A stretch of 64,000 nucleotides of DNA, from positions 959-64,958 of the forward strand of contig JARYMI010000016.1 in the NCBI GenBank assembly GCA_029907205.1, read 5' to 3'. This DNA comes from Clostridiales bacterium (GTDB lineage Bacteria > Acidobacteriota > Aminicenantia > Aminicenantales > UBA8522). Position 1 is the first letter of the stretch, and each line of letters starts with the position of its first letter. Position numbers and translations under genes: made by a program. A model generated the notes under the pieces. The model ran no database searches. It was not told the DNA's origin and worked only from the letters and a program-made list of their open reading frames with translations. Of this stretch, positions 222-23,889 are shown in pieces.

Positions 222-248
222 AAATTGGGGACAGCATACGTAACCACC
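221..248 (+). repeat. TIR-like repeat end, left orientation (aaaattggggacagcatacgtaaccacc)
   Basis: Matches the consensus shared with 9025-9050, 18418-18446, 22321-22351 and 12998-13024. Its inverted partner is at 2066-2093. Confidence 0.75.
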
Positions 249-482
249 TTAATTTCTCTTATTCTCTTGGCTGGATAACGCCCGCGATATATTAAGAACG
301 TTATATTAAAAAAAGGTCGACGCCCATTTTTCTTGACACGCGAGAAGAGGCAGGGATAGAATTTTCCTCCGAGTGATAAGACGTCGACTGTGCGAGTCTC
401 TTAAGAAAGACGCTAAATCTGTTATCATTTCCCGTACAGTCTCAATCCAATTTCGATATAACTACTCCGGGGAGGGGAAGTT

Positions 483-2030: not shown

Positions 2031-2065
2031 CCGTGCCCGCTCTTCGGTAATAAAATGGAGTTTAG

Positions 2066-2093
2066 TGCATTACGTATGGCGTCCCCATTTTAA
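2066..2093 (-). repeat. TIR-like repeat end, right orientation (reverse complement taaaatggggacgccatacgtaatgcac)
   Basis: Inverted copy of the 221-248 repeat. It contains the outward ATG at 2076 followed by GCGTCCCCA and then a stop, a vestigial version of the MASPIL start seen at 22468. Confidence 0.7.
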
Positions 2094-3788: not shown

Positions 3789-5168
3789 TCAGAATCGAAG
3801 GATGAGTTTTGTCGTCGTGAAAAAGATCAAAAGACCGGTGATATCGACGATTGTGGTCAGCGCGGGGCTGGCCACTACAGCGGGGTCAAACTTGAGCCTG
3901 GCTGCGGCCAGCGGCAAGACGGCTCCTATCAGGGTAGAGCTTATCACTTGAAGAGCGAGCGCAATGCTTACGGCTAGGGCCACTGTCCAGAGCGAAATGG
4001 CCCCCGGCATGGCGGATTTCCCGCTGAAGATAAGAACCCGGCTGAAGGCGACCGCTGCCAGCAAAAGGCCGAGCAGAAGGGAAACCTGAATCTCTTTGAA
4101 AACGACTCTTAGAGCATCTTTCCCGGAAACTTCTTTCAGAGCCAGGGCGCGGACAACGAGAGTGGCTGACTGGCTTCCCGTGTTACCGCCCGTATCGGCG
4201 AGCATGGGCATGAACGTGGCCAGAATAGCGAACTGAAGGAGCAGCCCTTCAAAGCTCTGAACGATGTAGCCCGAGACAAACCCGAGCAGAGCCAAAGCTA
4301 AGATCCACAGCGATCTGTTTCTGAAATGATCCCAGGCTGAAGTTCTCAGGTAAGCTCGGGCTTCGTGGCGCCCGGCGATGGCCATGAACTTCTCCATGTC
4401 CTCGGTGTGCTCCTGGGTGACGATGTCGAAAGCATCATCATGGGTGATAATCCCGACGAGCGTTCTTTGACTGTTGACAACGGGCAAGGCGATGAGATCG
4501 TATTTCTGGATTTTCCGCGCTGCTTCTTCCTGGTCATCCGTCACCCAGGCAAAGGCAACATCCTTATTCATGATGTCGCGGATGCGAGCTTCGGGCCGCG
4601 CCAGAATGAGGTCTTTCAGAGAAATAAACCCGAGCAGTTCACGCTTCTGGTCTATCACATAGGCATAGTAGATTGTTTCCTTGTCCGGCGCCTCGAGACG
4701 CAGTTTCGCGATGGCATCGCCAGCCGTTAATTCTGGCGTGAGAGTCGCGTACTCTGAAGTCATGACAGCTCCGGCCGTGCCCTCCGGATAGGAAGCAAGC
4801 CTTCTTATGTCTTCTCTTTCCGCTTGAGCCAGGGCCGGAAGGATCGTCTCCTGTTTTTCTTTGGGCATATTCTTGAACAAATCAACCCTGTCGTCTGATG
4901 ACATGTCTGCAAACAGCCGGGCTAAGTCGTCGCGCTTCATAACCTCGGTCATGTCGACCTGAATATCTCTCTCCAGATGGCTGAAAATTTCAGATTGCAG
5001 AGGGTGTGGAGCTTGGCGCAAAACTTCCCAGGCTTCTCGGGGAGTCAGCGCCGAAATAAAATCGGCGATGACGCTGGGATGCCCCGACTGACAGAAAAGG
5101 CGCAGCTCCTCAGTATTCCCTGTGGCAATGGCTTCTCGCAGTTCCGGGACGAGGAGGGATATTTTCAC
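3789..5168 (-). CDS. mgtE: Magnesium transporter MgtE
   Basis: N-terminal MgtE_N region, tandem CBS-like region and a 5-TM C-terminal domain with the GNTGSQSATL-type motif. 459 aa. Confidence 0.85.
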   Translation of the reverse strand: MKISLLVPELREAIATGNTEELRLFCQSGHPSVIADFISALTPREAWEVLRQAPHPLQSEIFSHLERDIQVDMTEVMKRDDLARLFADMSSDDRVDLFKNMPKEKQETILPALAQAEREDIRRLASYPEGTAGAVMTSEYATLTPELTAGDAIAKLRLEAPDKETIYYAYVIDQKRELLGFISLKDLILARPEARIRDIMNKDVAFAWVTDDQEEAARKIQKYDLIALPVVNSQRTLVGIITHDDAFDIVTQEHTEDMEKFMAIAGRHEARAYLRTSAWDHFRNRSLWILALALLGFVSGYIVQSFEGLLLQFAILATFMPMLADTGGNTGSQSATLVVRALALKEVSGKDALRVVFKEIQVSLLLGLLLAAVAFSRVLIFSGKSAMPGAISLWTVALAVSIALALQVISSTLIGAVLPLAAARLKFDPAVVASPALTTIVDITGLLIFFTTTKLILRF

Positions 5169-5661
5169 GGCTCACCTCCCTTGGACTGCTCCGGGCTCGC
5201 AGCCGGGAGTGAACCGAAAGGTCAAGCGGCCTGAAAGTTATACCGGTTCACGCCGCTGGCTGCTGCGCACAGCCGTTGCAGCCCGCCTGGTCTTATCCAC
5301 AGCATCAAAAGCCGCCGCTCAGGCGATTTGAAGCACCATGGACTATCAGAATCACTCATGATCGCTCATCCGTTAGCATGAGTTTCTTATACATCTTGTC
5401 CTTTGTTCCGTCAAGAGAAAAAGCCGAGAAAAAGTTGACTGCGGGGCACAATTCTTACCATAGGTCAAGAGCCGACGGTCTCTCACCTGATCGCTGAGCC
5501 AGCTCAGCAGAAGATGAACTTGTCGGATTCTGGTAGAGCTATTTGGCCTAATTGACATTAACCCTCAGCGACACGGAAAAGATGACTTGCTTCGGCTGTC
5601 CATCAACTTTGACAGGAGCTTGATTTGAAGGCAATCTTGATTAAAAATAGATAACGAAAAA

Positions 5662-8995: not shown

Positions 8996-9050
8996 AATAA
9001 TAATTGGGTAATAATTGGGGTAATAATTGGGGACAGCTTACATAATTACC
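8996..9050 (+). repeat. Tandem 11-bp microrepeat (gtaataattgg x3) merging into a TIR-like repeat end (left orientation)
   Basis: taattgggtaataattggggtaataattggggacagcttacataattacc. The last 26 bp match the repeat-end consensus. Confidence 0.75.
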
Positions 9051-9160
9051 CTATTTTTTTCAAACGCCGTTTCTTTGTATTATAATTCTCTCTTTCCTGA
9101 TAAAGGAAAAAAATGGAACCCGCAGCCTGTCGAAGAAAGCGTGCCGGGAGGGAGAAATCA

Positions 9161-9700: not shown

Positions 9701-9888
9701 GCAACGCCGGTCACGCCGGTTCTCCTCCTTGGCAATGAGAATGTCCGTGACCCCGGTATTTATCTCCTCCTAGACTTCGCCCCGGGGCGAGAAATAGACC
9801 ATGTCCATCTCATCGCCAGCTCCGAAACGCCCGAAGCTCTTATCATCCTAAAAATAAAAAAGTAAGAAAACCGGCTGCCGCAGATTAA

Positions 9889-9931
9889 GTGAATTACGTA
9901 TGCTGTCCCCCTGAATGCTGAATGCTGAATG
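9889..9931 (-). repeat. TIR-like repeat end (right orientation) followed by tandem 7-bp repeat (ctgaatg x3)
   Basis: gtgaattacgtatgctgtcccc is the reverse complement of the consensus left end. It pairs with 9025-9050 to bracket the DUF2284 gene. Confidence 0.75.
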
Positions 9932-10019
9932 TCTCTTGACACTCCGGATAAAAATAGGCTAAGGTTGGGTGCGATCTTCAGCGGCGGGTTGCTCTCGTCC
10001 CCCAAGAAGGAGGACTGCA

Positions 10020-10492
10020 TGAAAAAAGCTTTGAAAATCCTGGTTTTCATTTTGTTGTGCGAGCTGGCGGGTATCATCGGCTCCGTTTTTACGACGCCTT
10101 CGATCCCCGGGTGGTACGCAGGACTGTCCAAACCGCCGTTCAACCCGCCCAACTGGGTGTTTGCGCCGGTCTGGACTATCCTTTACGCCCTGATGGGACT
10201 CTCCGCTTATCTCGTTTTTGAAAAAGGCCCGGGGAGAAGCGACGTCAGGAAAGCCCTGGCGGTTTTCGCCGGGCAGCTTGTCCTCAACGCGCTCTGGTCG
10301 ATCGTCTTCTTTGGGGCGCACATGATCCTCGGCGCCGTCGTCGTCATCATCCTTTTATGGGGAATGATTCTCGCGTCGATCCTGCTGTTCTCGAAGATTT
10401 CCAGGGCGGCGGCGTATCTGCTCATTCCCTATATGATGTGGGTCAGCTTCGCGACGATCCTGAATATTTCCCTATACGTTCTCAACCGTTGA
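10020..10492 (+). CDS. tspO: TspO/MBR family tryptophan-rich sensory protein
   Basis: 157 aa, five hydrophobic helices, Trp-rich motifs (PGWYAGL, PPNWVFAPVWTILY). Start at the internal ATG with an aaggagg RBS. Confidence 0.8.
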
Positions 10493-10499
10493 GCCGCTG

Positions 10500-11135
10500 T
10501 CAGAGCGGCAGGTTCATCCGTTTCAGCAGTTCCTGGAATCGCGGCTCATCACGGAGAGCATCGTATTCCCCGCCGTGCACGCGGATCCACGGCAATACGG
10601 GAACACGGTCCCGGTAGCAGGCTTCCAGCAGGTCGAGCGCCTTGCTTTTCTCTCCGAGGGCGGCGTAAATCTGCGCTGTAAACCAGGCTCGCGACGCGTC
10701 CATGTGTTCGGCGATATCCAGCGCCTCCTGTCTCCGCCCGGCGTAGGCCAGCGGCTCCGCCAGGTCGATCTCCACAGCCTCGTGGAGATACTTTAATCCC
10801 CGGTCGATATTCTCCTCGGTGTACTGCGTTATATGATAGATCCCTCTGAGATAAGCCTCATACACCGCAGGGTTCACCTTGCGGGGTGACGAAAAGCGGG
10901 TCTGCTGCTCGGGCGTCAGCAGGACTTTGACTTCCCGCGCCACGCCCTAAACGACCTCGCTTTGCACGCGCAGCAACCGCGCTCCTGCGGCGGAGTCCGC
11001 CAGGGCGCCGGCCCGGTTAACCTTGAGGGCTACGGGACGGTCGAGCTGGATATCGCGCGCCTTCCAGACCTCGCCCATTCCGCCTTCGCCGAGTTTATCG
11101 AGGATCAGGTACTGAGCGATGGTCCGGCCGATCAC
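10500..11135 (-). pseudogene. Remnant of a Ser/Thr protein kinase-TPR gene: kinase N-terminus (62 aa, GxGxxG) and C-terminal TPR tail (147 aa), with the whole middle deleted and the frame shifted
   Basis: ORF 10947-11135 encodes [12 protein letters not shown]...VALKV (glycine loop plus VAIK-like lysine) and then stops. ORF 10500-10943 encodes a TPR-like tail ending RFQELLKRMNLPL, typical of kinase-TPR C-termini. The two are 4 bp apart in different frames. Confidence 0.7.
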
Positions 11136-11341
11136 AGCTTGCCGCCTCCGGACGGGCCACAGAACCGCCCGTCGTCCTGAGAATTCTTTATGATGGAGTG
11201 TCCGAGCGCCAATTTCGCCTCAAATCATCGACGGGAATGATAAATCGGGGCCTCACGGATGTCAAATTGAGCTGAAAGGTGCTTCATTTTGTGAATGAGT
11301 CAAGCTAAGAAAGAACCGGTCGCCGATTAAGATAGGAATGC

Positions 11342-12826
11342 TTATTCCTCGGCGAACGCATCCTTGAGGAGCTGGCTCTGCCGGCTGAAGGCCACCCGCG
11401 GGCTCCTGGTTTCCTTCATCAGCGAGATTTCCTGGGTGACGAGGCGGGCGATGTGCATCGTCTGCGCTGCGGCTTTGCGCGACTCCCTCTGGAAGAGAGG
11501 ATGATCGCGGTTGATATAGACGACATTTCCCTCAGAGAAGCATTCCGGCCCGAGCGGGCCAAAAAAATCGAGGCAGACCGAAACGCTCTCGGTTCCCATC
11601 CGCATCCTCCGGACGATGGCGTTCGGGGTGACTCTTTTGACCAGAGGATGGCGCTTCTTCTTTCTTTTTGGCAACCCCTCCGCCTCCTTCCCCGCCTTCG
11701 CCTCTCGGGGCTTGACTTCTGCTTCTTTTAGGGCCTTGCCTTTAGCTCCGATAACGGCGCCGCTTCCGGCCTCCCCCGGTTCGCCATACTCAATCGGGCC
11801 GAAGGGCGAGAGGTCAGGGTTGCGGGCCAGTGCTTTATGAATGCGCTCGAGGGCCTCGTTGACGGCCCGGCTCGCACGGCGCTGCTCGCTCCGGTCAGCT
11901 TCCTTGCCCAGGGCTTTCCCGATGACACCGACGACTTTTTCCATGATCTTGAGGAATTCCTGGTACTCGCCGGAATCGACGATAAAGCCCGACCGGTCGG
12001 AGGTGATGGGAAGGAAATCGGCGTTGATTTCTCCTTTGACCCGGGCTACCGCCTTTCCCCATGTTTCCATGCCGAAGAGGTCTTTTATCACCGTCGCGCC
12101 CCTGACTTTTATCTCGATACCCAGGTCCTTGAAGTCGGCGGCCGACTTCGGGGTGATGACGATTTCTCCGGTGACGGGGCCATACTTTGTGCCTTCAAGA
12201 AGCGGGATCCTGCGACCGATGATGCTCCGGGGGTAGAGGCGCCTGCCGTTGACGTAAACGGTAAATTCCGGAGCCTTGAGGGGAACGCTTTCCATGAGCT
12301 TCCTCTCCACGTCCTCGACGAGAAACGACTTCGAAAGCCCTGAGAGGATGACGCTCGTTCCATCGCCCCGCCGGGGGTCGGGCGCGAGAATCTCACAGGG
12401 GATATGCCATTCGTCTTTTGCTTCCTCCCAGGCTTTCTTGTCGAAAACAACCCGGGCGGCAAAATCCCTGTGCTGGGTGATGAGCTCGAAACGCGAGGCA
12501 GCAGCGAGGGAAGCGAATTTCCCGATGCCGAACTGGCCGATCCGGAGGCGTCCGAACCGGGGCGAGCGGGAATGGACGACCTTCTCGTCCGACCCGATGA
12601 TAAAATATTGTTTCAGGCCGGCGAGGTCCATGCCCGTGCCGTTGTCGCTGACGGTTATCCGAGCGGGCGAGATTTCGACGCGCACCTCTGTGGCGTCGGC
12701 GTCGTAGGCGTTGTTCACGAGCTCGCGGAGGAGCTCGACGCTTTCCGCGTAGAGGCGCTCGCCAATCGAGACGATGTGGCGCTTGTCGACGGTTACTTCG
12801 AGGCTTTTTTTCTCTTTAACGTCCAT
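11342..12826 (-). CDS. GHKL-superfamily ATPase (Hsp90/MORC-like HATPase_c_3 N-domain) protein, function unknown
   Basis: N-box ELVNNAYDADATEV, G1 box SDNGTGM, G2 box IGQFGIGKF. Basic KRKKKRHPLVKR segment. 494 aa. Confidence 0.6.
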   Translation of the reverse strand: MDVKEKKSLEVTVDKRHIVSIGERLYAESVELLRELVNNAYDADATEVRVEISPARITVSDNGTGMDLAGLKQYFIIGSDEKVVHSRSPRFGRLRIGQFGIGKFASLAAASRFELITQHRDFAARVVFDKKAWEEAKDEWHIPCEILAPDPRRGDGTSVILSGLSKSFLVEDVERKLMESVPLKAPEFTVYVNGRRLYPRSIIGRRIPLLEGTKYGPVTGEIVITPKSAADFKDLGIEIKVRGATVIKDLFGMETWGKAVARVKGEINADFLPITSDRSGFIVDSGEYQEFLKIMEKVVGVIGKALGKEADRSEQRRASRAVNEALERIHKALARNPDLSPFGPIEYGEPGEAGSGAVIGAKGKALKEAEVKPREAKAGKEAEGLPKRKKKRHPLVKRVTPNAIVRRMRMGTESVSVCLDFFGPLGPECFSEGNVVYINRDHPLFQRESRKAAAQTMHIARLVTQEISLMKETRSPRVAFSRQSQLLKDAFAEE

Positions 12827-12997
12827 GACGAACCTTCCCTCTGATCCGATCGCGGGGCTGACGCTCCTTCATCCCGGGACCGGAGCGCCTCAATGATATA
12901 AAATAGCAGGAGATATTTCAACGCCGATCGCAGGGGGAGCATATACAAATCGCCTGTGTTTCTGATACATTATATGAACAAAATCCATGAGTAAAGT

Positions 12998-13088
12998 AAA
13001 AGTGGGGAGAGCATACTCATTTACCTTATTTTTTGGAGAAATTGTGGAGAAATAGGGTAAACGAGTATGCTGTACCCAATTTTGAAGG
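12998..13088. mobile_element. Roughly 90-bp miniature inverted-repeat element (both TIR-like ends, about 30 bp of internal sequence)
   Basis: Left end aaagtggggagagcatactcatttacc (12998-13024). Right end ggtaaacgagtatgctgtacccaattttgaagg (13056-13088), which is the reverse complement of a diverged left end. Confidence 0.65.
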
Positions 13089-14251
13089 CGGCGGCGCTGC
13101 TCCTGGCGAGCGCTCTGTTCTTTTCCCCGCTTCCTCTTTCCTCCCAGGTGTTCGATTTTCATGGCCTCGTTTCCGGCTGGGCCACAGTTTCGGGCGAAAA
13201 AGGCACACCCTTCCAGGCCGGCCTCCGCTGGCTGCCCGCTTTCTCGCTCGTCAAAACCCTTCGCGGCGAAAGCCTCCTGGACGCTGAATTATCCGTAAAC
13301 GCCCGGGGCTCGGTTAACATCCACAGCAGCGATGACATCCGCACGGACGGGAAGATTAGGCTCTACCGCGGCCAGGCCAGGTTTTCCTCGCCCCGGTTCG
13401 AGGCGAGGCTAGGTTTACAGAAAATTAGCTTCGGCTCGGCTGCTTTTCTGCGTCCGCTCATGTGGTTCGACCGCCTCGACCCGAGGGACCCGCTGCAAAT
13501 CACAGACGGCGTCTATGGCCTGCTCCTTCGGTATTATTTTCTCAACAATGCAAACGTCTGGCTGTGGGGACTCTACGGAAACGAGGACCCGAAAGGATGG
13601 GAGTTCCTTCCGACCGCGACAAAACGGCCCGAGCTGGGAGGACGTATCCAGACGCCGCTGGGCAAGGGAGAGCTTGCCCTGAGCTATCACCACCGCCGGG
13701 CCACTGTAGCAGAAAGAGAGTTATTATCACCACCACCACAACTTTCTTCTTCCTTTGCGTCCTCGAACTCAACTGCGATTCCCGAGAACCGCTATGCCCT
13801 CGACGGCAAATGGGACTTCGGCGTGGGCGTCTGGTTCGAGGCCGTCGTCATCCGTCAGCACAACGAACGTCTCCCTTATGCCCGGCAAAGGTCTTTTGTC
13901 ATCGGCGTGGATTACACTTTCGGCCTCGGAAACGGCCTCCATGTCCTCTGGGAATACTTCGAGTACACTTCCGGCGCAAACACCTGGAGCGGCGGGCAGC
14001 AGGCCCGGTTCCTTGCCGTCTCGCTCGCCCACCCCATCGGAATCCTCGACAACCTGACCGGAATCCTCTATTATGACAGAGAGAATCGTGACGTCTACAC
14101 CTTTTTCCGCTGGCAGAGGACGTACGACCGCTGGAACTTCCACCTGATGGCCTTCTGGAATCCTAAGCGCTTTCAAATCTACGGGACCGAGGCCGGCGCC
14201 AACATGTTTGCCGGAAAGGGCATCCAGGTGATGGCCGTCTTCCACTATTGA
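13067..14251 (+). CDS. Putative outer-membrane beta-barrel protein (signal peptide, C-terminal aromatic residue). Its start codon lies inside the repeat end.
   Basis: 394 aa. N-terminal MLYPILKAAALLLASALFF signal-like sequence. Alternating beta-strand pattern, ends VFHY. The first 7 codons are encoded by the repeat. Confidence 0.5.
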   Translation: MLYPILKAAALLLASALFFSPLPLSSQVFDFHGLVSGWATVSGEKGTPFQAGLRWLPAFSLVKTLRGESLLDAELSVNARGSVNIHSSDDIRTDGKIRLYRGQARFSSPRFEARLGLQKISFGSAAFLRPLMWFDRLDPRDPLQITDGVYGLLLRYYFLNNANVWLWGLYGNEDPKGWEFLPTATKRPELGGRIQTPLGKGELALSYHHRRATVAERELLSPPPQLSSSFASSNSTAIPENRYALDGKWDFGVGVWFEAVVIRQHNERLPYARQRSFVIGVDYTFGLGNGLHVLWEYFEYTSGANTWSGGQQARFLAVSLAHPIGILDNLTGILYYDRENRDVYTFFRWQRTYDRWNFHLMAFWNPKRFQIYGTEAGANMFAGKGIQVMAVFHY

Positions 14252-14270
14252 AATGGAAGGTGAACGCAAG

Positions 14271-15110
14271 ATGGAAAACGCGGCTTTGATCCAGACTAAG
14301 GACCTCGTGAAAATCTACCCGATGGGGAGCCATGAGCTCGTCGCTCTCAACAACGTGAACCTGGATTTCAAGAAAGGCGAGTTCGCCGGCCTCGTGGGAC
14401 CGAGCGGCTCTGGAAAAACGACGCTCCTCAACATCGTCGGCTCGCTCGACTCCCCTACCCGGGGAAGCGCCATCGTCATGGGAAAAAAAGTCGAGGAGCT
14501 TAGCCACAAACAGGCTGCCCGCCTCCGCAATTCGCACATCGGGTTCATCTTCCAGACGTTTAACCTCCTGCCCGTCTACACGGTCTTCGAGAATGTCGAG
14601 TTCCCGCTCCTTCTTCTCGGGTTTTCACCGGCCGAACGCAAACGCCTGGTCATGGAAGCTCTCGATTGGGTGAGGCTGGCTGATAGAGCCAGATCCAGGC
14701 CGGCTCAGCTTTCCGGCGGCGAGAGCCAGCGTGTGGCCATCGCCCGGGCCATCGTCAAGAAACCAGCCATCATCTTAGCCGACGAGCCCACGGCCAACCT
14801 CGACGCCGAGAACTCCCACAACGTCCTCCAGATTATGGAAGAGCTGAACCAAGAGACCGGAACAACCTTCATTTTCGCTACCCATGACGAAAAGGTGATC
14901 AGCTATCTGCGAAGGAAGATCACTCTGATCGACGGCAGGGTGGTCCGGGACGAGGTTATGACGCCAGAGCGCCAGCCTGAGGCAAAAGCTCAAGCCCAAG
15001 CGCAGGCGCAGGCGCAGGCTAAGCCCTCCCCGGGGCGGACCGAACAGGCTGAAGAGACAGGAGGACCGGGAGGGACGGGAACGAGAGGAGGGTCAGGAGG
15101 ACGGCGATGA
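14271..15110 (+). CDS. ABC transporter ATP-binding protein (LolD/MacB/FtsE-type) with Ala-Gln repeat and Gly-rich C-terminal tail
   Basis: Walker A GPSGSGKTT, signature LSGGESQRV, Walker B IILADEPT. Start placed at the ATG with a ggaaggtga RBS. Confidence 0.85.
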   Translation: MENAALIQTKDLVKIYPMGSHELVALNNVNLDFKKGEFAGLVGPSGSGKTTLLNIVGSLDSPTRGSAIVMGKKVEELSHKQAARLRNSHIGFIFQTFNLLPVYTVFENVEFPLLLLGFSPAERKRLVMEALDWVRLADRARSRPAQLSGGESQRVAIARAIVKKPAIILADEPTANLDAENSHNVLQIMEELNQETGTTFIFATHDEKVISYLRRKITLIDGRVVRDEVMTPERQPEAKAQAQAQAQAQAKPSPGRTEQAEETGGPGGTGTRGGSGGRR

Positions 15111-16291
15111 AGATTCTCTTCAAGCTGGCTCTCAGGAACCTGCTGGGCGCAGGGCTTCGAACCTGGCTCAACATCGCTGTCCTCTCCTTCGCTTTCGTGG
15201 CCATCATCTGGACCCAGGGTTTTTACCGGGGAATGAGCCGGCAGGCGATTCAAGCGTTGACCGACGCAGAGTACGGGGGTGGTCAGTACTGGCATGAACA
15301 ATACGACCCTTTTAACCCGCTGACACTCGACGATGCCCATGGACGTGTGCCGGAACCTTTACAGAAGCTCATCGAGGAGCGCAAGGCTACGGCTGTTCTT
15401 ATCATCCAGGGAACGCTCTATCCCCATGGCCGGTTCCTGCCTGTAACGGTCAGAGGAATCGACCCTGCTCAGGGAGTCCTCCTCTTTCCTTCGGAATTCT
15501 TGGAGACTGGTGACGGGAACGACGCAGAAATCCCCGCGATCATCGGGAGCCGCATGGCCCGGTCGACCGGCCTCAAGGTCGGCGACACCGTGACCCTGCG
15601 CTGGCGGGACGCGCGAGGCGCCTTCGATGCCCGCAATATCCGCATCGTCCAGGTCATGAGCACGACCGTCCAGTCCATCGACCAGGGGCAAATCTGGCTA
15701 TCCCTCGACACTCTCCGCTCGCTCGCCGGTATGGAGGGGGAAGCTACCCTAATTACGCTGGCAAAAGGAACACCTTTCTTGGAGGAAATCCCGGGCTGGT
15801 CCTACAAGAGCCCGGACGTACTGCTCAAGGACATTCATGACCTCGTCCGGAGCAAGACGCTCGGCGCGACGATTCTCTATATTATCCTCATCCTCCTGGC
15901 CATGCTGGCCATCTTTGACACCCAGGTGCTGTCCATCTTCCGCCGGAGAAAAGAAATGGGAACCTTGATGGCCATGGGCATGACCCGGCTGAAAATCATC
16001 CAGCTTTTCACCATCGAGGGCGCCTTGCATTCGGTGCTTGCGGCCCTTGTCGCGGCTGTCTACGGGATTCCCCTGCTCACGCTTTCTGCCCGGAGCGGGT
16101 GGGCCATGCCCCAGGCCGTAGATAGCTACGGGTATGCCATCGGCGAGAGAATCTTTCCCGTTTACAGCGCCGGGCTGGTCATTGGGACGACGGTCCTGGT
16201 CATGTTAGTCACGACTGTGGTCAGTTTCCTCCCGACGCGAAAGATATCCCGGCTCAAGCCCACCGACGCTTTGCGCGGGAGGATGCCATGA
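15107..16291 (+). CDS. ABC transporter permease, FtsX/LolC-like (4 TM plus large periplasmic loop)
   Basis: N-terminal TM, long periplasmic domain, C-terminal 3-TM FtsX-like block. Translationally coupled to the upstream ATPase. Confidence 0.7.
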   Translation: MKILFKLALRNLLGAGLRTWLNIAVLSFAFVAIIWTQGFYRGMSRQAIQALTDAEYGGGQYWHEQYDPFNPLTLDDAHGRVPEPLQKLIEERKATAVLIIQGTLYPHGRFLPVTVRGIDPAQGVLLFPSEFLETGDGNDAEIPAIIGSRMARSTGLKVGDTVTLRWRDARGAFDARNIRIVQVMSTTVQSIDQGQIWLSLDTLRSLAGMEGEATLITLAKGTPFLEEIPGWSYKSPDVLLKDIHDLVRSKTLGATILYIILILLAMLAIFDTQVLSIFRRRKEMGTLMAMGMTRLKIIQLFTIEGALHSVLAALVAAVYGIPLLTLSARSGWAMPQAVDSYGYAIGERIFPVYSAGLVIGTTVLVMLVTTVVSFLPTRKISRLKPTDALRGRMP

Positions 16292-17565
16292 TCAAGTTCC
16301 TCCTTAAGGGCATTCTCCGCGACCGTTCCCGGAGCCTTTTTCCCTTTCTGACCGTGACTATCGGCGTGATGCTCACCGTCTTTCTCTATTGCTATATCAA
16401 GGGTGCGGAGAGCAATTTCATCGAATCAAGTGCCCGTTTCTCCACAGGCCATGTGAAAATCATGTCCCGCGCTTATGCCGCCGAGGCTGACCAGATTCCC
16501 AATGACCTGGCTTATGTTGGCGTCGAATCCCTGCTCCTCGAGCTGAGGCAGGAGTTTCCGGATATGGTCTGGACTCCGAGAATCCGGTTTGGCGGGCTTT
16601 TAGACATCCCGGACGAAGCCGGGGAGACGCGCTCGCAGGGCACGGTGGCCGGGCTGGCCGTTGACCTTTTCGGGAGCGATAGCCCCGAGCGTCTCATCAT
16701 CAACATCGAGAAGGCCGTGGTGAGCGGGCATCTTCCGCGAAAACAGGGGGAAATCCTCATCAGTGCCGACCTCGCCACGACTCTCGATGTGCGGCCGGGA
16801 GACACAGCGACACTCATCGGCTCGACGATGCACGGCAGCATGGCCATAACGAATTTCACGGTCGCCGGCACAATCCGGTTCGGCGTCACGGCCATGGACC
16901 GGGGCGCCGTCCTGGCCGATATCCACGATATCCAGGAAGCCCTTGACATGGAGGATGCGGCCGGTGAAATCCTGGGGTTTTACAGAGGTTTTATTTATAA
17001 GGATAAGGACGCTGAAGATATGGCCAGCCGGTTCAATGCTCGGCACCACGGGCAGGGGGAGAGCGACGAATTCCTCCCGGTCATGGTGACGCTCAAGAAC
17101 CAGAGCGGCCTTGCCGACCTTCTGGCCATGATGGGGATGTTCTCGTCGGTCGTCGTCCTCATCTTCGTCGCCGCGATGTCCATCGTCCTCTGGAACGCCG
17201 GCCTGATGGGCTCGCTCCGGAGATACGGCGAGATCGGCGTGCGGCTGGCCATGGGCGAGGACAAGGGCCATCTCTACCGTTCCCTGATCGCCGAATCCAT
17301 GCTGATCGCCGTTTTCGGAACGATCGCCGGCACGACCGTGGGCGTGGCCATCGCCTACTACATCCAGGTCCACGGCATTGACATCAGTTCGTTCATGAAG
17401 AGCTCCTCCCTGATGGTCACCGATGTCCTGAGGGCCCAGGTGACGCCGGTGAGCTTCGTCATCGGGTTTCTTCCGGGCCTTGGCGCGACTTTCATCGGCA
17501 CCTCTATCTCAGGAATCGGCATCTACAGGCGGAAGACATCGACCCTGATGAAGGAGCTCGAATGA
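16288..17565 (+). CDS. ABC transporter permease, FtsX/LolE-like (second permease)
   Basis: Same architecture as the previous gene. Start overlaps the previous stop (ATGA). Confidence 0.7.
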   Translation: MIKFLLKGILRDRSRSLFPFLTVTIGVMLTVFLYCYIKGAESNFIESSARFSTGHVKIMSRAYAAEADQIPNDLAYVGVESLLLELRQEFPDMVWTPRIRFGGLLDIPDEAGETRSQGTVAGLAVDLFGSDSPERLIINIEKAVVSGHLPRKQGEILISADLATTLDVRPGDTATLIGSTMHGSMAITNFTVAGTIRFGVTAMDRGAVLADIHDIQEALDMEDAAGEILGFYRGFIYKDKDAEDMASRFNARHHGQGESDEFLPVMVTLKNQSGLADLLAMMGMFSSVVVLIFVAAMSIVLWNAGLMGSLRRYGEIGVRLAMGEDKGHLYRSLIAESMLIAVFGTIAGTTVGVAIAYYIQVHGIDISSFMKSSSLMVTDVLRAQVTPVSFVIGFLPGLGATFIGTSISGIGIYRRKTSTLMKELE

Positions 17566-18416
17566 TGAATCAAGGCAGGAAAAAGGCCGCTCTTGCGGAA
17601 AGGGCTAACTTTATTATTTCTATATTATTTATATATTCTATAGGAATTATAGGAAAATTGGAATCAAGCTTTTGCCTGGTTCTGGAAGGAGAGTCGGCGG
17701 CAGGGAGCAGGCAAACCTCCCTGGATAGCCAGCAAACCCCTTCGGGCGAGTGGATCTTGGGCCGCGTCGATGAAAACATCATCTCGGGGAATAAAATCAT
17801 TGCCTCTCGCATGATCATCCACGGCCGACGCGGGAGCCGCTCTATCGAGGCGAAATCGTGGATACAGGGCGAAGACAAGGCCTTCACGGAGTACCTGGCG
17901 CCAGCCCAGGAGCGGGGAACGAAGATGCTCAAGCTCGGCGACCAGTTATGGACCTACTCGCCCTCGACCGACCGGACCATCCTCATATCGGGCCACATGC
18001 TGCGGCAGTCGGTCATGGGATCAGACCTTTCCTACGAGGACATGATGGAAGAACGGAGGCTCCTCAAAATGTACGAGGCAGCGGTCATCGGTGAAGAAAC
18101 CGTGCTCGACTCTACCTGCTGGGTGTTAGAGCTTAGGGCGAAGACGCCGGACGTCGCCTATCCCTCGAGGAAAATCTGGGTGGATAAGGAGCGGTTCGTC
18201 GTCCTCAGGGAAGAGCGCTATGCCAGGAGCGGCACGCTCCTCAAGACGACCGAAGTCAAGAGCATCGTCAAGGCCCAGGGGCGATGGATTCCAGAGAGGG
18301 TCGTCTACAAGGACGCGCTCAAGGCCGGAGACGGGACGGAATTCATCGTGGATGCGATCGAGTTCGACGCCTCCATCCCTGATTATCTTTTCACCAAGGC
18401 CTCCTTGCGGAAATGA
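17562..18416 (+). CDS. LolA-like outer-membrane lipoprotein-sorting/carrier family protein
   Basis: Follows the two FtsX-like permeases. Periplasmic beta-rich roughly 250 aa body resembling LolA/DUF4292-like proteins. The exact start is uncertain because of an AT-rich N-terminal region. Confidence 0.45.
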   Translation: MMNQGRKKAALAERANFIISILFIYSIGIIGKLESSFCLVLEGESAAGSRQTSLDSQQTPSGEWILGRVDENIISGNKIIASRMIIHGRRGSRSIEAKSWIQGEDKAFTEYLAPAQERGTKMLKLGDQLWTYSPSTDRTILISGHMLRQSVMGSDLSYEDMMEERRLLKMYEAAVIGEETVLDSTCWVLELRAKTPDVAYPSRKIWVDKERFVVLREERYARSGTLLKTTEVKSIVKAQGRWIPERVVYKDALKAGDGTEFIVDAIEFDASIPDYLFTKASLRK

Positions 18417-18417
18417 C

Positions 18418-18546
18418 CAATTGGGGGACAGCATACGTAATTACCAAAATTCCGGTAGCGGAATCCAACAAAAGGCAGGCACCGCCAAAAAGACGCCGGT
18501 GCTTGCTTCAACTGATCAACAGATCGGCAGTCTGCGGCGAAAAAAA
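18418..18546 (+). repeat. Partial copy of the miniature element: left TIR-like end plus conserved internal sequence, no right end
   Basis: ccaattgggggacagcatacgtaattacc followed by ...aagacgccggtgcttgcttcaactgatcaacagatcggcagtctgcggcg. This is about 90% identical to the internal part of 22321-22488. Confidence 0.8.
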
Positions 18547-21500
18547 ATGAAAAAGAGGCTGAAGAAGGCTTTCCTCGTCCTAGGAAGCATCCTGCTGTTT
18601 TTCCTGCTGGTCATCGTCATCGCTTCCCTGCTTTTTTTCTACCGGAAGCCCCTCATCAAGAGAATCGTAGAAAAACAGGTTGAAAAGCAGACGGGAATCC
18701 GTGTCGCCGTTGGAACTCTGGATTATTGGCTGTTTCCGCTGAGGATTGAAGCTGGCTCAGTCATGTTCAAAACGAAACTAGAAGAAACAGAAGTCGATGT
18801 TTTTGTCGGGAGGCTTATACTCAGAGGCGATATCCATCGCATCAGGAAAAAGGCGAGACCCTATTTTGAATCAATCGAGGCGGAGGGCGTCCGGATTATC
18901 TCTTATGTGGGGAAGGCCCGAAAAAAGATCGCCGTCGAAGACATCCTCCATGGCTTATCTTCAGGGATGAGCTACGTCAGAAAAATAGGCCTTAGAAACT
19001 CCTCTTTTAAGTTCATTTTTTCCAAACAAGAACTATCTTTTCAAGAAGTGGAGATCACTCTGTCATCATCCTGGAATCAAGAATCTATTGCCTATACCCT
19101 GCTCTGCCAGAAGGCCCAGGGAATTTTTCAATCCAAATCAGCTCAATTCCAAAACGCGATTCAGGCGTCCGGGACCCTGTTCCCCGGGGAAAAACCGGCC
19201 ATAAAGGGCGGGTTTGTTTTCACATCGAACCGTCTCGCTTACGCTGCCAAAGAAGAATATTTCGAAAAAATCACCGTGAATTTTGATGGAGCATTCGACT
19301 GGAGCAAAGAGGAATTTATCTTTCAATCGCTACAGGTCGAAATCCCGTCCTTCACGAGCCTCACGGGATCCCTTGATATTATTCTCAAAGACGAGTTGAC
19401 CTTTTCCATTCGCCCCCGGCTCCAAGTTGAAGACCTCGGCCGATTTTATCACCTAGTTAAAGACCGTTTGCCCCGGGAGTTCGAGGGGCTGGAGCTTCAA
19501 GGCAGCGCACTTTTTGAAGGAGAGGCCCGCATAAAGCCTCCAGATCCCGGGAAAAAGCTAAGCCTCAGCGGGCTGGTTGTGCTGAACCCTTCCCGTATCA
19601 AATTTCGGACCGCCGAATATCAACTTGACTGTCCCGTTTCAGGGGATTTCAGGATCGCCAGATTCCCGGACGATCCTGAGATATCCGGCCGCCTGAAGAT
19701 TTCCGATGGCTCTTTAGCTGGAAAAGCTGTGGAAGCCCATGGAATAGGACTCGATATTCCCTTTGTTTATGACCATAAAGAATCAATACTCAACATCGCG
19801 AGTTTAAAAGCCGGCGCTTTTCGCCTGGATATTCCTTACACGAAAATAAAAACAAACACTCCTAGGTTTTTTGGGCAGGGATTTCTGGATCTTAAGAAAA
19901 AGAGGCTCCATATTTTGCGGGCAAATGTCGAGGTGGACCCTTTCCCGGTGTTTTACATCAAAGCGCAGGCCGGTCTCAGCCCTCAGGATGCCAAGTCGTT
20001 TTCCGTTAAGAGTTCACAAATCAGCTTCCAGTCAGTGATGGATTTTTTCTCTTTCGCCGTTCCAAAGAAAGTCATGGATTGGGAACCTGACGGGCGGTTG
20101 AACGTTCAAATCGAAGCTCGCCATCCTTCCGGAGAAAAGGAAAAGGGCTGGCACGTAGCGGCAGAACTTGAATCCCTCGACGTGAAATTCCATGACCCTT
20201 CCTTCACGGCGGCCGGAGAAGCTCTCCGCGCGAAGCTTACCCTGGAGGGAACCCTCCGTCGTCCTTTGAAAGAAATTCTGTTCAGGGCAAGGATGGAGCT
20301 TTACCGGGGGGAATCTCTCTGGAAGGACTTTTATGTGGACTGGAGCAGGATGCCTCTTCAGAGTACTGTGATCGGCCGGTTTGACATTCCGCAGAAAAAA
20401 CTGACAGACTTCTCCCTGGGACTGGCCATTCCTGGTTTCGGCGAGATTGATGCAACAGGCCGGCTCGATTTACAGGAACCCCGTTTCGCTGATCTAAAAG
20501 TCACGGCCTCAGCGTTTCAACTCGCCGCTCTGTCCGCTTTCTTCAACCAGAGAAGAGCAGCCGGCCAAACGCAGGGGGAATGGAAAGGCGAGGCGGAGAG
20601 CCGCGTCAATGCCAGGTTCGATAAAAACGCTCTCTCCATCCTTGGATTTCTCAGGGTGAAGGATACGTCATGGACCGATGAAGCCAGGAATTTGGCAATA
20701 CAGGGAATAGAGGCGCATCTCCCTGTGCATTACGATTCTAAACCCAGATACGGAGAGGCGGATATCCCTTCTCCGGAAGACGGATATCTCCATGTGCAAA
20801 AAATTCGTGCTCCCTATCTGGACCTGTCGTCGCTGAGGCTGGACATCAAAGGCAGAAGAAACGGCTACTCGATCCAGCCTTTCGCGCTCGAGATATTCGG
20901 CGAGGAGGCCAGGGTGGGCGAGATATCTATCGAGTACCGGTCCAACCCGTCGGATTTTAAGGCTCTGACTTCGTTTTCCTGGATGGACGGAGATCTTTCC
21001 CAGGCTCCGTTTTCCTCCCGGGATTTCCAGCTCGAAGGAAAGTTATCCCTGGATCTTCCTCGTGTCGCAATCTCGCCGGACCTCGTGTCGACCGAGGGCG
21101 TAGCCAGGGCAAACGCATTCGGAGGAACGATCGCCATCAAAAACATCCAGATGGAAAGACCGTTCACCAAAAACAGGACGATTTCCTGCGATGTCGCGTT
21201 AGCGGAACTGGACCTTGAAAAAATCACGGATTCGATCCCGTTCGGCCGCGTCACGGGAATCATCAACGGAGAAATCCAGGACCTTGCCCTGTCCTACGGG
21301 CAGCCCGAACGCTTTGACATCCGTATCGAATCGGAAAGGAGAAAGGGAGTTCAGCAGAGATTCAGCGTGAAGGCCACAGACGATCTGACCATTCTCGGCA
21401 CGGGCGAAAGAACGGCCTTGTCTTCCCGGAGCGGATGGACCCGATTCGTCCGAGAATTCAGATATGACAAAATCGGGATCGCGTGTTCCTTGAAAAACGA

Positions 21501-21669
21501 CATCTTCTCTCTTCAGGGAACGATCTGGAGGAACGGAGTCGAATATCTCGTCAGAGGAACCGGCCTTTTCGCCATTAACGTGGTGAACAAACAGGCCCGG
21601 AATCAAATCCGTTTCAAGGATATGCTGAACCGGCTCCAGAGAATAGGCCAATCAAAACAATCCCCATGA
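18547..21669 (+). CDS. ydbH: AsmA-family/YdbH-like large inner-membrane-anchored protein (putative inter-membrane lipid transport)
   Basis: N-terminal signal-anchor MKKRLKKAFLVLGSILLFFLLVIV, then about 1000 aa of beta-rich sequence. It lies immediately upstream of a YnbE/YdbL-like gene, as in the E. coli ydbH-ynbE-ydbL operon. The ORF-track start at 18220 reads through the repeat and is rejected. Confidence 0.6.
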   Translation: MKKRLKKAFLVLGSILLFFLLVIVIASLLFFYRKPLIKRIVEKQVEKQTGIRVAVGTLDYWLFPLRIEAGSVMFKTKLEETEVDVFVGRLILRGDIHRIRKKARPYFESIEAEGVRIISYVGKARKKIAVEDILHGLSSGMSYVRKIGLRNSSFKFIFSKQELSFQEVEITLSSSWNQESIAYTLLCQKAQGIFQSKSAQFQNAIQASGTLFPGEKPAIKGGFVFTSNRLAYAAKEEYFEKITVNFDGAFDWSKEEFIFQSLQVEIPSFTSLTGSLDIILKDELTFSIRPRLQVEDLGRFYHLVKDRLPREFEGLELQGSALFEGEARIKPPDPGKKLSLSGLVVLNPSRIKFRTAEYQLDCPVSGDFRIARFPDDPEISGRLKISDGSLAGKAVEAHGIGLDIPFVYDHKESILNIASLKAGAFRLDIPYTKIKTNTPRFFGQGFLDLKKKRLHILRANVEVDPFPVFYIKAQAGLSPQDAKSFSVKSSQISFQSVMDFFSFAVPKKVMDWEPDGRLNVQIEARHPSGEKEKGWHVAAELESLDVKFHDPSFTAAGEALRAKLTLEGTLRRPLKEILFRARMELYRGESLWKDFYVDWSRMPLQSTVIGRFDIPQKKLTDFSLGLAIPGFGEIDATGRLDLQEPRFADLKVTASAFQLAALSAFFNQRRAAGQTQGEWKGEAESRVNARFDKNALSILGFLRVKDTSWTDEARNLAIQGIEAHLPVHYDSKPRYGEADIPSPEDGYLHVQKIRAPYLDLSSLRLDIKGRRNGYSIQPFALEIFGEEARVGEISIEYRSNPSDFKALTSFSWMDGDLSQAPFSSRDFQLEGKLSLDLPRVAISPDLVSTEGVARANAFGGTIAIKNIQMERPFTKNRTISCDVALAELDLEKITDSIPFGRVTGIINGEIQDLALSYGQPERFDIRIESERRKGVQQRFSVKATDDLTILGTGERTALSSRSGWTRFVREFRYDKIGIACSLKNDIFSLQGTIWRNGVEYLVRGTGLFAINVVNKQARNQIRFKDMLNRLQRIGQSKQSP

Positions 21670-21736
21670 CCGGGTTCCGTGATTTTGCTATACTAATAAA
21701 ATGAGAAAAATGAGCTTTTCAGGAAGGGAGGTCGCC

Positions 21737-22312: not shown

Positions 22313-22320
22313 ACCTTCCA

Positions 22321-22488
22321 AATTGATCGGGTGACAGCATACATAATTACCAAATTTCCAAAAGAGAGATTCAACAAACGGTGGGCATCGCCAAGAAGAC
22401 GCCGGTGCTTGCTTCGACTGATCAACAGATCGGCAGTCTGCGGCGCAAAAAATTAAGGTAATTATGTATGGCGTCCCCAATTTTGAGG
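22321..22488. mobile_element. Complete roughly 168-bp miniature inverted-repeat element (MITE-like) with about 30-bp TIRs
   Basis: Left end aattgatcgggtgacagcatacataattacc (22321-22351). Right end ggtaattatgtatggcgtccccaattttgagg (22457-22488) is its reverse complement. The internal roughly 105 bp is shared with 18447-18546. Confidence 0.85.
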
Positions 22489-23889
22489 CGATTTTTCAAG
22501 CCCGGAAACATCATGGTCGACCGGGACGGCCAGGCGCGGATCATGGATTTCGGGATCGCCCGCTCGCTCAAGGGCAAGGGCATCACCGGTGCCGGAATGA
22601 TGATCGGGACGCCGGAATACATGTCGCCCGAGCAGGTCGAGGGCAAGGAGGTCGACGAGCGGTCGGACATCTATTCTCTCGGCGTCATTCTTTATGAAAT
22701 GGTGGCGGGGCGGGTGCCGTTCGAAGGCGAAACTCCTTTCACGGTCGGCGTGAAACACAAGAGCGAAGTTCCCCGGCCGCCCAAAGAGCTCAACGTCCAG
22801 ATTCCCGAGAGCCTCAACCAGGTGGTTTTGAAATGCCTGGAAAAAGACAAAGATAGGCGGTATCAAAGCGCCACAGAACTGAAAGGGGAATTAGGGCTGA
22901 TCGCAGAGGGAATGCCGGCTGCGGCGAAAGCGATTCCAAAGAGGAAGGCATTCACGTCCAGAGAAATTACAGTAACCGTGGGAGTGAAAAAGCTCGTCGT
23001 TCCCGCAGTCGCTCTCGTCGCCCTTGTTGTTCTGGCCGCCGTCCTCTGGCGTATCATCCCGAAAAGGAAGGCGTTGCCAATCCCAACGGACAGACCTTCT
23101 ATCGCCGTCATGTATTTCAAAAACAACGCGGGCGATTCGGGGCTCAACCACTGGCAGACCATGCTACCCAACCTGCTCGTCACCGACCTCACCCAATCGA
23201 GGTTCATTCGCGTCCTGAGCGAGGACAGACTCGGTCAAACCGTATGGGTGAGAGGCTTACTGATCGGTTTATCTTACCTTGAGCGAACTTCAGGACGTCC
23301 GGAAGCCGCCCTGGTAGAGCTGGATAAAGCCTGGACCAGCGCGGTCGCGGAAGACAGCTTGTGGGATCAAAGAGATATTCTGCTCAGTCAGGGGCTGGCG
23401 CATCTGGCGATGAAATCCATACGCCAAGCCCAAGATGTGACCGCCAAGCTGGAGGCGGCGGTCGCCCAGGCGCCCAACAAAAAACTCATCTGGTACTCTC
23501 ACTATCTGATGGGGATGATCGAGCTGGAAAAAAAGAACTATGCCAGGGCTATTGAACTGTTCAAGCTGGGATTGCCTTTGTTGGACGCGGATTCAGGAAA
23601 TCGCCTTTTATTTGCTGACGCAACGGGCACGGCCTTTTATGAATCGGGTGATCTCAACAGCGCTCGGCAGGAGTATCAGAGAATCATTTCTATGAATATC
23701 GGCAGGTTTGATTACGGCGACATCTATGCCAAAGCCCATTACCAACTTGGAAAAATCAGCGAACAGCAAGGAAAAAAGGCCGAGGCCGGAGAGCATTACC
23801 GGAAATTCCTTTTCCTCTGGAAGGATGCCGACTCCGGCCTGCCCGAAGTCGAGGACGCTCGCAAATCGCTGGCTCGTCTTCAGCCGTGA
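22468..23889 (+). pseudogene. 5'-truncated Hanks-type Ser/Thr kinase with TM segment and TPR domain. The ATP-binding lobe is missing and the first 7 codons come from the repeat end. Possibly expressed as a dead pseudokinase.
   Basis: The ORF begins MASPILR (repeat-encoded). It then runs FKPGNIMV...DFGIA...TPEYMSPE, which are kinase subdomains VIb to VIII. The glycine loop, VAIK lysine, alphaC glutamate and HRD are absent. A TM helix and TPR-like repeats follow. Confidence 0.7.

Follow-up and report, generated by a model that had tools for sequence, protein, structure and literature searches.

Two unrelated genes in a 64,000-nt stretch of contig JARYMI010000016.1 (positions 959 to 64,958; referred to here as the window) are annotated from start codons that lie in the ends of a dispersed repeat. 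One is a porin-like outer-membrane protein (OMP) gene starting at 13067, the other a truncated protein kinase open reading frame (ORF) starting at 22468. We consider it probable, at about 70% for the explanation as a whole, that these repeat ends are terminal inverted repeats (TIRs) of elements resembling miniature inverted-repeat transposable elements (MITEs), that they became gene starts after loss of flanking DNA or after insertion, and that their ATG is kept as a part of the TIR core. The repeat would then represent the TIR of a non-coding, palindromic element family that is abundant in Aminicenantes genomes. Its conserved core would happen to include GTATG and, read outward, would open a frame up to the element edge. 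An adjacent deletion beside a TIR end, or an element landing in the 5′ end of a gene, would fuse the TIR to a coding region and, where the fusion is in frame, the ORF would now begin within the TIR. The ATG would be conserved for its place in the core and not for translation. An earlier reading of this DNA (the original prediction) had recognized the repeat-encoded starts and interpreted them as a portable translation-start module. The four sequences that it quoted, at 13067, 22468, 2076 and about 9900, are present as described, the end of a dispersed repeat does encode the shared N-termini, and both genes are annotated by NCBI from exactly these ATGs.

The core GTATGSYGTMCCC (at most one mismatch) was found nine times in the window, four times on the plus and five times on the minus strand, compared to 0.14 matches expected from dinucleotide-preserving shuffles. 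A profile built from the nine copies recovered the same nine ends of ~36 nt, all located within 1-22.5 kb, and no further match in the window. To describe the family, 91 TIR ends were collected from the window and 55 fetched loci, 59 of which are of the Aminicenantes type. The TIR of ~36 nt has the core GTATGsyGTCCCCAAWTTT and, among these 59 ends, the consensus AAATTAGGGAATTAyGTATGsyGTCCCCAAWTTT, in which each position of the GTATG..GTCCCC stretch is conserved at 85-98%. Read outward, a TIR end presents TAA-N6-ATG, from which a frame (M-[L/A]-S-P-[I/N]-...) stays open up to the element edge. Complete elements are non-coding, measure 75-250 bp and consist of inverted TIR pairs, with arms 81-86% complementary to each other, around variable interiors; they form strong hairpins. 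Taken alone, one TIR unit forms no hairpin, and except for GGGGAC its sequence is A+T-rich. Two complete palindromic units are present in the window, at 12999-13083 (85 bp) and 22326-22483 (157 bp). By its sequence, the repeat can be classed as having a MITE- or REPIN-like palindromic anatomy.

Both ORFs do use the same frame, as had been noted, but this is not independent evidence: each end offers a single outward ATG, and since a TAA in the same frame lies 9 nt ahead of it (at 13058-13060 and 22459-22461, respectively), any ORF called from the TIR must use that frame. Likewise, the common M-x-x-P-I-L-R/K N-terminus is repeat-encoded except for the R/K at residue 7, which is encoded just outside the TIR consensus. 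Past the consensus, TTTTGA(A)GGCG is common to the two fused copies (13081-13091 and 22482-22491); it gives the K/R at residue 7 and is absent from the orthologous kinase TIR in locus L011. Candidate origins for this shared stretch are filler DNA, a subfamily-specific extension of the TIR, or conversion between copies.

The kinase locus allows a state before and a state after the fusion to be compared. In the window, the 157-bp element consists of a left TIR (22326..22360, minus strand; profile match) and a right TIR (22445..22483, plus strand) with TAAGG at 22454-58, TAA at 22459-61 and ATG at 22468-70. From this ATG runs a Ser/Thr kinase-tetratricopeptide repeat (TPR) ORF of 473 aa (22468..23889, plus strand), 5′-truncated and internally deleted, which is annotated as 'protein kinase' (MDH7512909.1) with the N-terminus MASPILR... 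(start region 22466-22488, gtATGgcgtccccaattttgagg). Locus L011, the end of contig CAZKBY010000074.1, aligns to this region with 82% DNA identity (window 22496-23227 to L011 2406-3137, blastn). It carries the same right TIR at 1740-1775, and 32 nt of it (1743-1774) are identical to the window copy. There, four CCAATTTT-like units come after the TIR, then a promoter-like TTGACT-17-TATTTT and, from 1866, a full-length kinase gene, so the TIR stands 90 nt upstream of an intact gene. Because the same TIR is present upstream of the intact gene, it predates the deletion in the window lineage. Kinase homology restarts in the window at 22496, equivalent to L011 2406, at about codon 180 and inside the HRDLKPGN codons. 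Between the TIR end and this point, the deletion junction (22484..22495, plus strand) holds ~12 nt of filler (GAGGCGATTTTT). The window lineage has thus lost the promoter, the 5′ untranslated region and 180 codons, ~605 bp counted from the outer end of the TIR. This junction was read from the blastn alignment and the raw sequence, as a global MAFFT alignment misplaced the TIR.

The original prediction held that the repeat rescued a 5′-deleted kinase. Our data do not support this. The Pkinase profile is matched by the ORF only from position 124 of 263; the N-lobe with glycine-rich loop, VAIK lysine and helix C is gone, as is the HRD aspartate, and ~375 aa of the TPR region are missing in-frame compared to homologue P0121 (query 259 to subject 591). 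Since the N-lobe and the HRD aspartate are lost, the product as predicted from its sequence cannot phosphorylate and cannot be an active kinase. The internal deletion apparently took place between similar segments of the TPR region, RFIRVLSEDRLGQ and RFIEMGEKLGQ. No plus-strand sigma-70-like site was found upstream of 22468 in a consensus scan, and RNA folding indicates that the left TIR would pair with the region of the kinase ATG if the whole element is transcribed. The remnant contains no frameshift or stop over 473 codons, and its ratio of nonsynonymous to synonymous divergence (dN/dS) against L011 is 0.105 (243 codons, dS 0.82). Either the deletion is recent or the remnant is still constrained. 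We infer that the ORF is a recent, catalytically dead remnant and that the position of the TIR ATG in the kinase frame is a 1-in-3 accident.

The OMP gene (QHH14_08150, 13067..14251, plus strand, 394 aa) presents a different situation. It heads an ABC/FtsX/TP_0789-like cluster and is annotated from the right TIR (13046..13083, plus strand; profile match with E=3e-7) of the 85-bp element, which pairs with the left TIR at 12999..13036 (minus strand). Three codons of one frame fall into this right TIR: a TAA at 13058-60, the ATG at 13067-69 and a TTG at 13082-84, the last of them on its outer edge. The first 5-6 codons of the annotated N-terminus MLYPILK... are encoded by the TIR (start region 13065-13088, gtATGctgtacccaattttgaagg). 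The AlphaFold model of the protein (pLDDT 83) shows an N-terminal helix at residues 3-19 followed by ~18 strands, and Foldseek matched it to the porins OmpC, OmpF and Omp32 (E about 1e-9). As a porin-like beta-barrel, the protein must be exported and therefore needs a signal peptide. Ahead of the hydrophobic core (AAALLLASALFF), a start in frame is offered only by ATG13067 and TTG13082, and GTG13148, which follows next, lies past the cleavage region. With the only starts ahead of the required signal peptide located in or at the edge of the TIR, the start is supplied by the repeat, and OMP translation very likely begins in repeat-derived sequence. The native start codon and the n-region are gone, and the TIR directly abuts the h-region of the signal peptide. 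The porin gene is probably still functional, and the TIR-encoded residues would form only the n-region of a signal peptide that is cleaved off. N-terminal proteomics can consequently not settle the OMP start, as these residues lie within the cleaved signal peptide. The proposal that the repeat creates or repairs gene 5′ ends is therefore retained for the porin-like gene, whose start is very likely repeat-derived, but not for the kinase.

A comparison of the OMP start with its orthologues, as had been suggested, supports its origin from the repeat. The four closest orthologues (P0002-P0005) are 78-81% identical in the mature part and have other, conventional n-regions rich in K/R (e.g. MKRCGLRRVAF...). 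Their loci have no TIR at the start: none is adjacent in L001 and one is found 140 nt upstream in L049. An MLYPILK-like N-terminus that occurs without the repeat would have pointed to coincidental similarity; the similar N-terminus of the more distant homologue P0008, MSKLSPIL..., was found to carry a repeat end there. In this locus (L002), a TIR end is present at the same junction (GGGTAAATGAGTAAACTGTCCCCAATTTTGA), its ATG is changed to AAA (GTAAA), and the annotation begins from a new ATG located 6 nt upstream. A homologous end is found at the same place in L051, where the TIR has GTAAG and the gene (P0007) has an ATG of its own, which lies in the context TTG AAG AAA ATG, 12 nt past the TIR. 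In two orthologous copies, the TIR ATG is lost and the gene persists, so the gene can do without the TIR ATG as such. Orthologous loci differ in whether they carry the OMP-adjacent TIR, and no clean empty site was recovered among them. Insertion into the 5′ end of the gene and adjacent deletion from an L049-like state are both possible routes to the fusion, in one or two events. Unrelated to the TIR, a motif (GGTCGRACCATGATAAYTTATTTA) is shared ~250 nt upstream of two OMP orthologues (L050 1195-1250, L051 1270-1320) and may be another repeat or a regulatory site.

If the repeat end were a portable expression module, comprising a promoter and/or ribosome binding site in addition to the ATG and recurrently exapted to create or repair 5′ ends, as the original prediction proposed with functional rescue of the kinase included, other ends should behave in the same way. 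Some features would fit. The kinase copy and some others carry an SD-like 5-mer at plausible Shine-Dalgarno (SD) spacing (TAAGG-N9-ATG in the kinase copy), a stop codon precedes the ATG in frame, and the frame is open to the element edge. Two uses are found within 22 kb, TIR-encoded N-termini occur also in P0008 and, via GTG, in the SEC-C protein P0247, the kinase remnant is an intact ORF with low dN/dS, and repeats of Neisseria and Borrelia discussed below provide precedents. However, no outward sigma-70-like promoter was detected, and an SD-like 5-mer 5-16 nt upstream of the ATG is present in only 9 of the 59 Aminicenantes-type ends and absent from 46. The ATG itself is intact in 49 of the 59 and is conserved equally in left and right TIRs and in Desulfobacterota copies; it is gone from the orthologous OMP copies, whose genes remain. 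When an element is co-transcribed, the ATG is sequestered in a long hairpin: for the RNA of 12996-13090, folding gives -40 kcal/mol (z=-7.2) with ATG13067 base-paired, if transcription starts upstream. A consensus scan found no plus-strand sigma-70-like promoter in the 240-nt intergenic region upstream of 13067, and no good SD precedes this ATG. The product of the rescued kinase would in addition lack the ATP-binding lobe and the HRD motif.

We also read all 91 ends outward in three frames for ORFs of at least 150 codons. Seven such ORFs were found in frame 0, seven in frame 1 and two in frame 2, so the frame of the ATG is not enriched. When the two window genes and P0008 are set aside, what remains in frame 0 resembles antisense shadows of GC-rich genes or, in L026, an ORF equipped with an SD and ATG of its own 11 codons downstream. 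No other gene genuinely fed by the TIR ATG was identified among the ~90 ends, with 0 further frame-0 fusions among ~47 other ATG-bearing ends of the Aminicenantes type; gene fusions are seen at only 2-3 of about 59 ends. Many ends stand just upstream of the promoters or SDs of host genes without supplying them (L011, L012, L020, L022 and window 2074). The latter is a right-type solo TIR end (2055..2091, plus strand; profile match) that abuts the SD (AGGAGG) of the M20 peptidase gene at 2106. As had been described, a 1-bp difference leads to an immediate stop before this SD: with one A fewer than in the 22468 copy, ATG GCG TCC CCA TTT TAA ends after 5 codons. The copy at 9900, given previously as 9899, reads ATG CTG TCC CCC TGA and stops after 4 codons. 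The SEC-C gene of L003 (P0247, 230 aa, 4798-5490, minus strand) shows another kind of fusion. Its annotated start is a GTG inside the TIR, 13 nt upstream of the TIR ATG and in a different frame, and the resulting N-terminus MYYVCCPPNFCCCGSRKKYKKCC replaces the native one seen in homologues. TIR fusions to truncated 5′ ends thus recur and use whichever start codon is in frame. This pattern fits random junctions filtered by selection and not a dedicated module; gene starts at repeat ends are an occasional by-product of a known kind. An expression module as the general role of the repeat end is therefore improbable.

Another possibility is that neither TIR ATG is used at all. The shared N-terminus would then be the conceptual translation of a non-coding repeat by an ORF-calling program, which picks whatever start comes first behind a stop, the porin would start from TTG13082 (MKAAALLL...), and the kinase ORF would be an untranslated pseudogene. 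A start at TTG13082 is in frame and would give the canonical n-region and h-region of a textbook signal peptide, and L051 has the same TTG AAG in frame upstream of its own ATG. ATG13067 lacks a good SD and is buried in the stem mentioned above, and the kinase has lost its promoter and first 180 codons. On the other hand, TTG13082 also lacks an SD and lies at the base of the same stem, and it is itself half TIR-derived, so that the start is repeat-supplied either way. A TTG start in P0008 would leave an h-region that is too short, and the TIR-encoded residues seem to be needed there; the kinase remnant, in turn, has kept its frame over its whole length. We regard a pure annotation effect as possible but rather unlikely. 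The repeats might also be conserved protein-binding or recombination sites that bound exchangeable gene segments, with the start fusions as by-products of recombination. Copies are kept at orthologous positions (223, 2074, 9898 and 22466) between the window and the 81%-identical CAZKBY genome, gene order changes exactly at TIRs between the window and CAZKBY contig 74, neither target-site duplications nor a transposase nearby were detected, the core is kept across phyla, and many ends show short tandem duplications of terminus and flank. Yet small palindromic units with unrelated interiors, high copy number and assembly breaks are typical of MITE- or REP-type repeats, no recombinase or integrase is linked to the copies, and homologous recombination between any dispersed repeats yields the same rearrangements. 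This explanation, too, seems quite unlikely. More far-reaching is the idea that the repeat is the footprint of an undescribed mobile or recombination system of Aminicenantes and Desulfobacterota whose ends are shaped to keep truncated genes translatable. The 20-nt core AATTAyGTATGGyGTCCCC is conserved across these phyla, target-site duplications are lacking, variable micro-tandem duplications of terminus and flank are present, and the repeat coincides with the breakpoints of gene-order changes and of adjacent deletions; its ends (TAA-N6-ATG, in some copies with TAAGG) are open in all frames. We consider such a system highly improbable.

Several observations weigh against our preferred explanation of MITE-like TIR ends that became gene starts. 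No consistent direct repeat of at least 5 bp was found as a target-site duplication in 21 left-right TIR pairings, some of which reuse ends; a recurring AATT that flanks TIR pairs is palindromic and reads as an extension of the TIR. No transposase or integrase domain was detected in 10 ORFs adjoining copies or between TIR pairs in the fetched loci, and neither an autonomous parent element nor an empty site was found there. The ORFs between and beside TIRs (M81 and M20 peptidases, DUF2284, penicillin amidase, periplasmic binding protein, methyltransferases and others) represent ordinary genes. The label 'MITE' therefore describes anatomy and not demonstrated mobility. In the OMP gene tree, the window gene groups with the TIR-less orthologues, and the TIR-adjacent P0007 and P0008 form a separate clade, which conflicts with a single ancestral insertion. 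The dN/dS value of the kinase remnant and its two in-frame deletions are also compatible with a translated non-kinase protein that is still under selection. Finally, the choice between ATG13067 and TTG13082, if either is used, is read from sequence and stands at roughly even odds.

Fusions of this kind have been described for other repeats. Open frames within repeats are fused to the 5′ or 3′ ends of genes in the case of enterobacterial MITE-like repeats, pneumococcal BOX, RUP and SPRITE elements and Anabaena MITEs (Delihas 2011, PMC3184786), and the products are often hypothetical or altered proteins, regarded as evolutionary tinkering (PMC3184786). Neisseria REP2 and the inverted repeats (IR) of Borrelia plasmids, on the other hand, place a promoter and a ribosome binding site together with an ATG upstream of ORFs (PMC3184786). 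The repeat described here resembles the former group in that the open frame of a dispersed non-coding repeat forms the end of an annotated gene. It differs in belonging to another sequence family and another phylum (Aminicenantes), in that comparative loci show flank loss from a pre-existing TIR end, and in that the contribution of the repeat is in one case limited to the n-region of a signal peptide that is cleaved off. With REP2 and the Borrelia repeats, it has in common that a repeat ATG becomes the start codon of unrelated downstream genes. REP2, however, has no TIRs, carries a promoter and a ribosome binding site and stands systematically upstream of ORFs, whereas the Aminicenantes repeat has no promoter detected by consensus scan and an SD-like motif in a minority of copies. 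In how it operates, it is like the fused MITE-like, BOX, RUP, SPRITE and Anabaena repeats, and it departs from the REP2 type in promoter, ribosome binding site and systematic position.

The kinase junction also resembles the products of known transposition reactions, as the deletion starts precisely at the outer TIR end and the intact end is fused to new sequence. Intramolecular transposition of IS1, IS26 and Tn3-family elements causes adjacent deletions from the outer end of the element, in which a variable length of flank is lost and the end stays intact. In contrast to such insertion sequences (IS) and transposons, no transposase or autonomous partner was identified here, and ~12 nt of filler lie at the kinase junction. 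Correia elements, the MITEs of Neisseria, influence the expression of neighbouring genes; they have a TA target duplication, defined outward promoters and binding sites for integration host factor (IHF). The Aminicenantes repeat is similar to them as a short, TIR-bounded intergenic palindrome that forms long hairpins when co-transcribed, but TA duplication, outward promoters and IHF sites were not found in it. In layout, the inverted TIR doublets are similar to REPINs. In repetitive extragenic palindromic (REP) elements and REPINs, each unit is in itself a short, imperfect and GC-rich palindrome whose 5′ tetranucleotide is conserved, and a RAYT gene is associated with them. Resemblances to the dif/Xer site, integron attC sites and Tn3-type and IS66-type ends were dropped, as informal comparison gave no convincing alignment.

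A scan with a 20-nt form of the core, run on one genome for each species and on the JGI metagenomes, shows how widely the repeat is distributed. Copies were found in several metagenome-assembled genomes (MAGs) of Aminicenantes (CAZKBY, JBBILQ, UBA4085, CAYUKK), as 75-bp palindromic doublets in a Desulfobacterales MAG and as 42-76-nt doublets in other contigs. Outside Aminicenantes, in MAG contigs of Desulfobacterales and others, the TIR core (GAATTAYGTATGGTGTCCCCAAA) forms palindromic doublets of 42-80 nt beside ordinary metabolic genes (L010 4753-4833, L014 1005-1084, L023 6240-6319, L035, L040). Contigs of the CAZKBY MAG start and finish in repeat copies (L003), as expected of a high-copy repeat. 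Viral contigs gave only 4 core matches, which were taken as chance. The 20-nt pattern also matches the 3′ end of tRNA-Glu(TTC) together with 8-10 nt past the CCA (TTGGGGACGCCA|TACATAATTG) in Ignavibacteria-like contigs (L006 7120-7207, L025, L039; in L024 and L032, only a 3′ tRNA fragment is present). This resemblance in sequence could be chance or a hint at the origin of the TIR. No Rfam family reached the gathering threshold anywhere in the window, and literature searches with the core sequence and with Aminicenantes plus repeat terms returned no relevant paper from the library that was searched. With its TIR core, absence of target-site duplications, terminal micro-duplications and cross-phylum spread, the repeat family appears undescribed. 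OMP homologues come nearly all from Candidatus Aminicenantes MAGs, and for the OMP, the kinase and the syntenic loci alike, the best homologues belong to Candidatus Aminicenantes or Acidobacteriota MAGs. The NCBI label 'Clostridiales bacterium' is thus probably a taxonomic mislabel.

At many outer TIR ends, the last few TIR bases together with 5-8 nt of flank are repeated in tandem, in 2-4 short copies; these are the micro-duplications, for example TAATAATTGGGG x3, CTGAATG x3 and CCAATTTT x4. In the window they are found at 9005-9030 and 9908-9930, elsewhere in L004, L005, L007, L011 (1775-1805), L014, L016, L029, L043 and L044. The unit varies among copies, even orthologous ones, as seen for CTGAATG at 9910 in the window and CCCTGTGATA in L011. 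Of the remaining window copies, a left TIR end at 222..258 (minus strand; profile match) lies upstream of an M81 peptidase gene and has a degenerate orthologous copy in L009, where the orthologous position of the 2055..2091 end is also kept (3005-3041). The left TIR end at 9024..9059 (minus strand; profile match) has its ATG changed to AAG and is preceded by the threefold TAATAATTGGGG, and the right-type end at 9879..9912 (plus strand) is followed by the threefold CTGAATG; its orthologous copy in L011 (822-857) has a different flank. A partial element at 18419..18546 (plus strand) comprises a left TIR (18419-18456) and an interior 86% identical to that of the 22326 copy, without a right TIR. 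Its interior runs straight into the ATG at 18547 of a 1040-aa DUF748 gene (GCGGCGAAAAAAAATGAAAAAG) with no SD, and it may represent an adjacent deletion that halted at the start codon of this gene. Degenerate TIR-like fragments in the intergenic region upstream of the 85-bp element (12943-12964, GGGGGAGCATATACAAATCGCC; 12985-12999, ATGAGTAAAGT) suggest nested or decayed older copies. At the opposite end of a gene, a 580-aa ORF of L016 (2347-4089) stops at a TAA inside a left TIR (4068-4103, CATACATAA), so that stop codons and C-terminal residues, too, can come from the repeat.

Between window 9913-22444 and L011 858-1739, the order of the genes changes exactly at TIRs. In the window, DUF2284 and a TIR are followed by 12.5 kb with TspO, a 494-aa gene, the OMP-ABC-FtsX cluster, DUF748 and DUF1318, and then by the second TIR and the kinase. 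In CAZKBY contig 74, only a SpoU methylase gene lies between the corresponding two TIRs, and in L001 SpoU is directly upstream of the OMP gene. The TspO gene of CAZKBY is located between two small elements (L003 2561-2737 and 3128-3250), and from blastn coordinates (L003 2561-3250 against window 9998-10495) this copy of the gene seems to lack ~186 nt that the window copy has. The repeats mark rearrangement breakpoints and are useful as markers of such breakpoints in Aminicenantes MAGs.

The repeat can also mislead annotation, since ORF callers will place the start of any open frame at the TIR ATG, which results in 'protein kinase' calls for catalytically dead remnants and in spurious shared N-termini. 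The cleanest new points are the comparison of the kinase locus before and after the deletion, the repeat-encoded n-region and a cross-phylum palindromic repeat with terminal micro-duplications. For an uncultured phylum, a TIR standing 90 nt upstream of an intact kinase gene in one genome and fused in frame at about codon 180 in another, together with a porin-like gene whose start codon and signal-peptide n-region are very likely repeat-derived, shows how a dispersed palindromic repeat re-heads genes.

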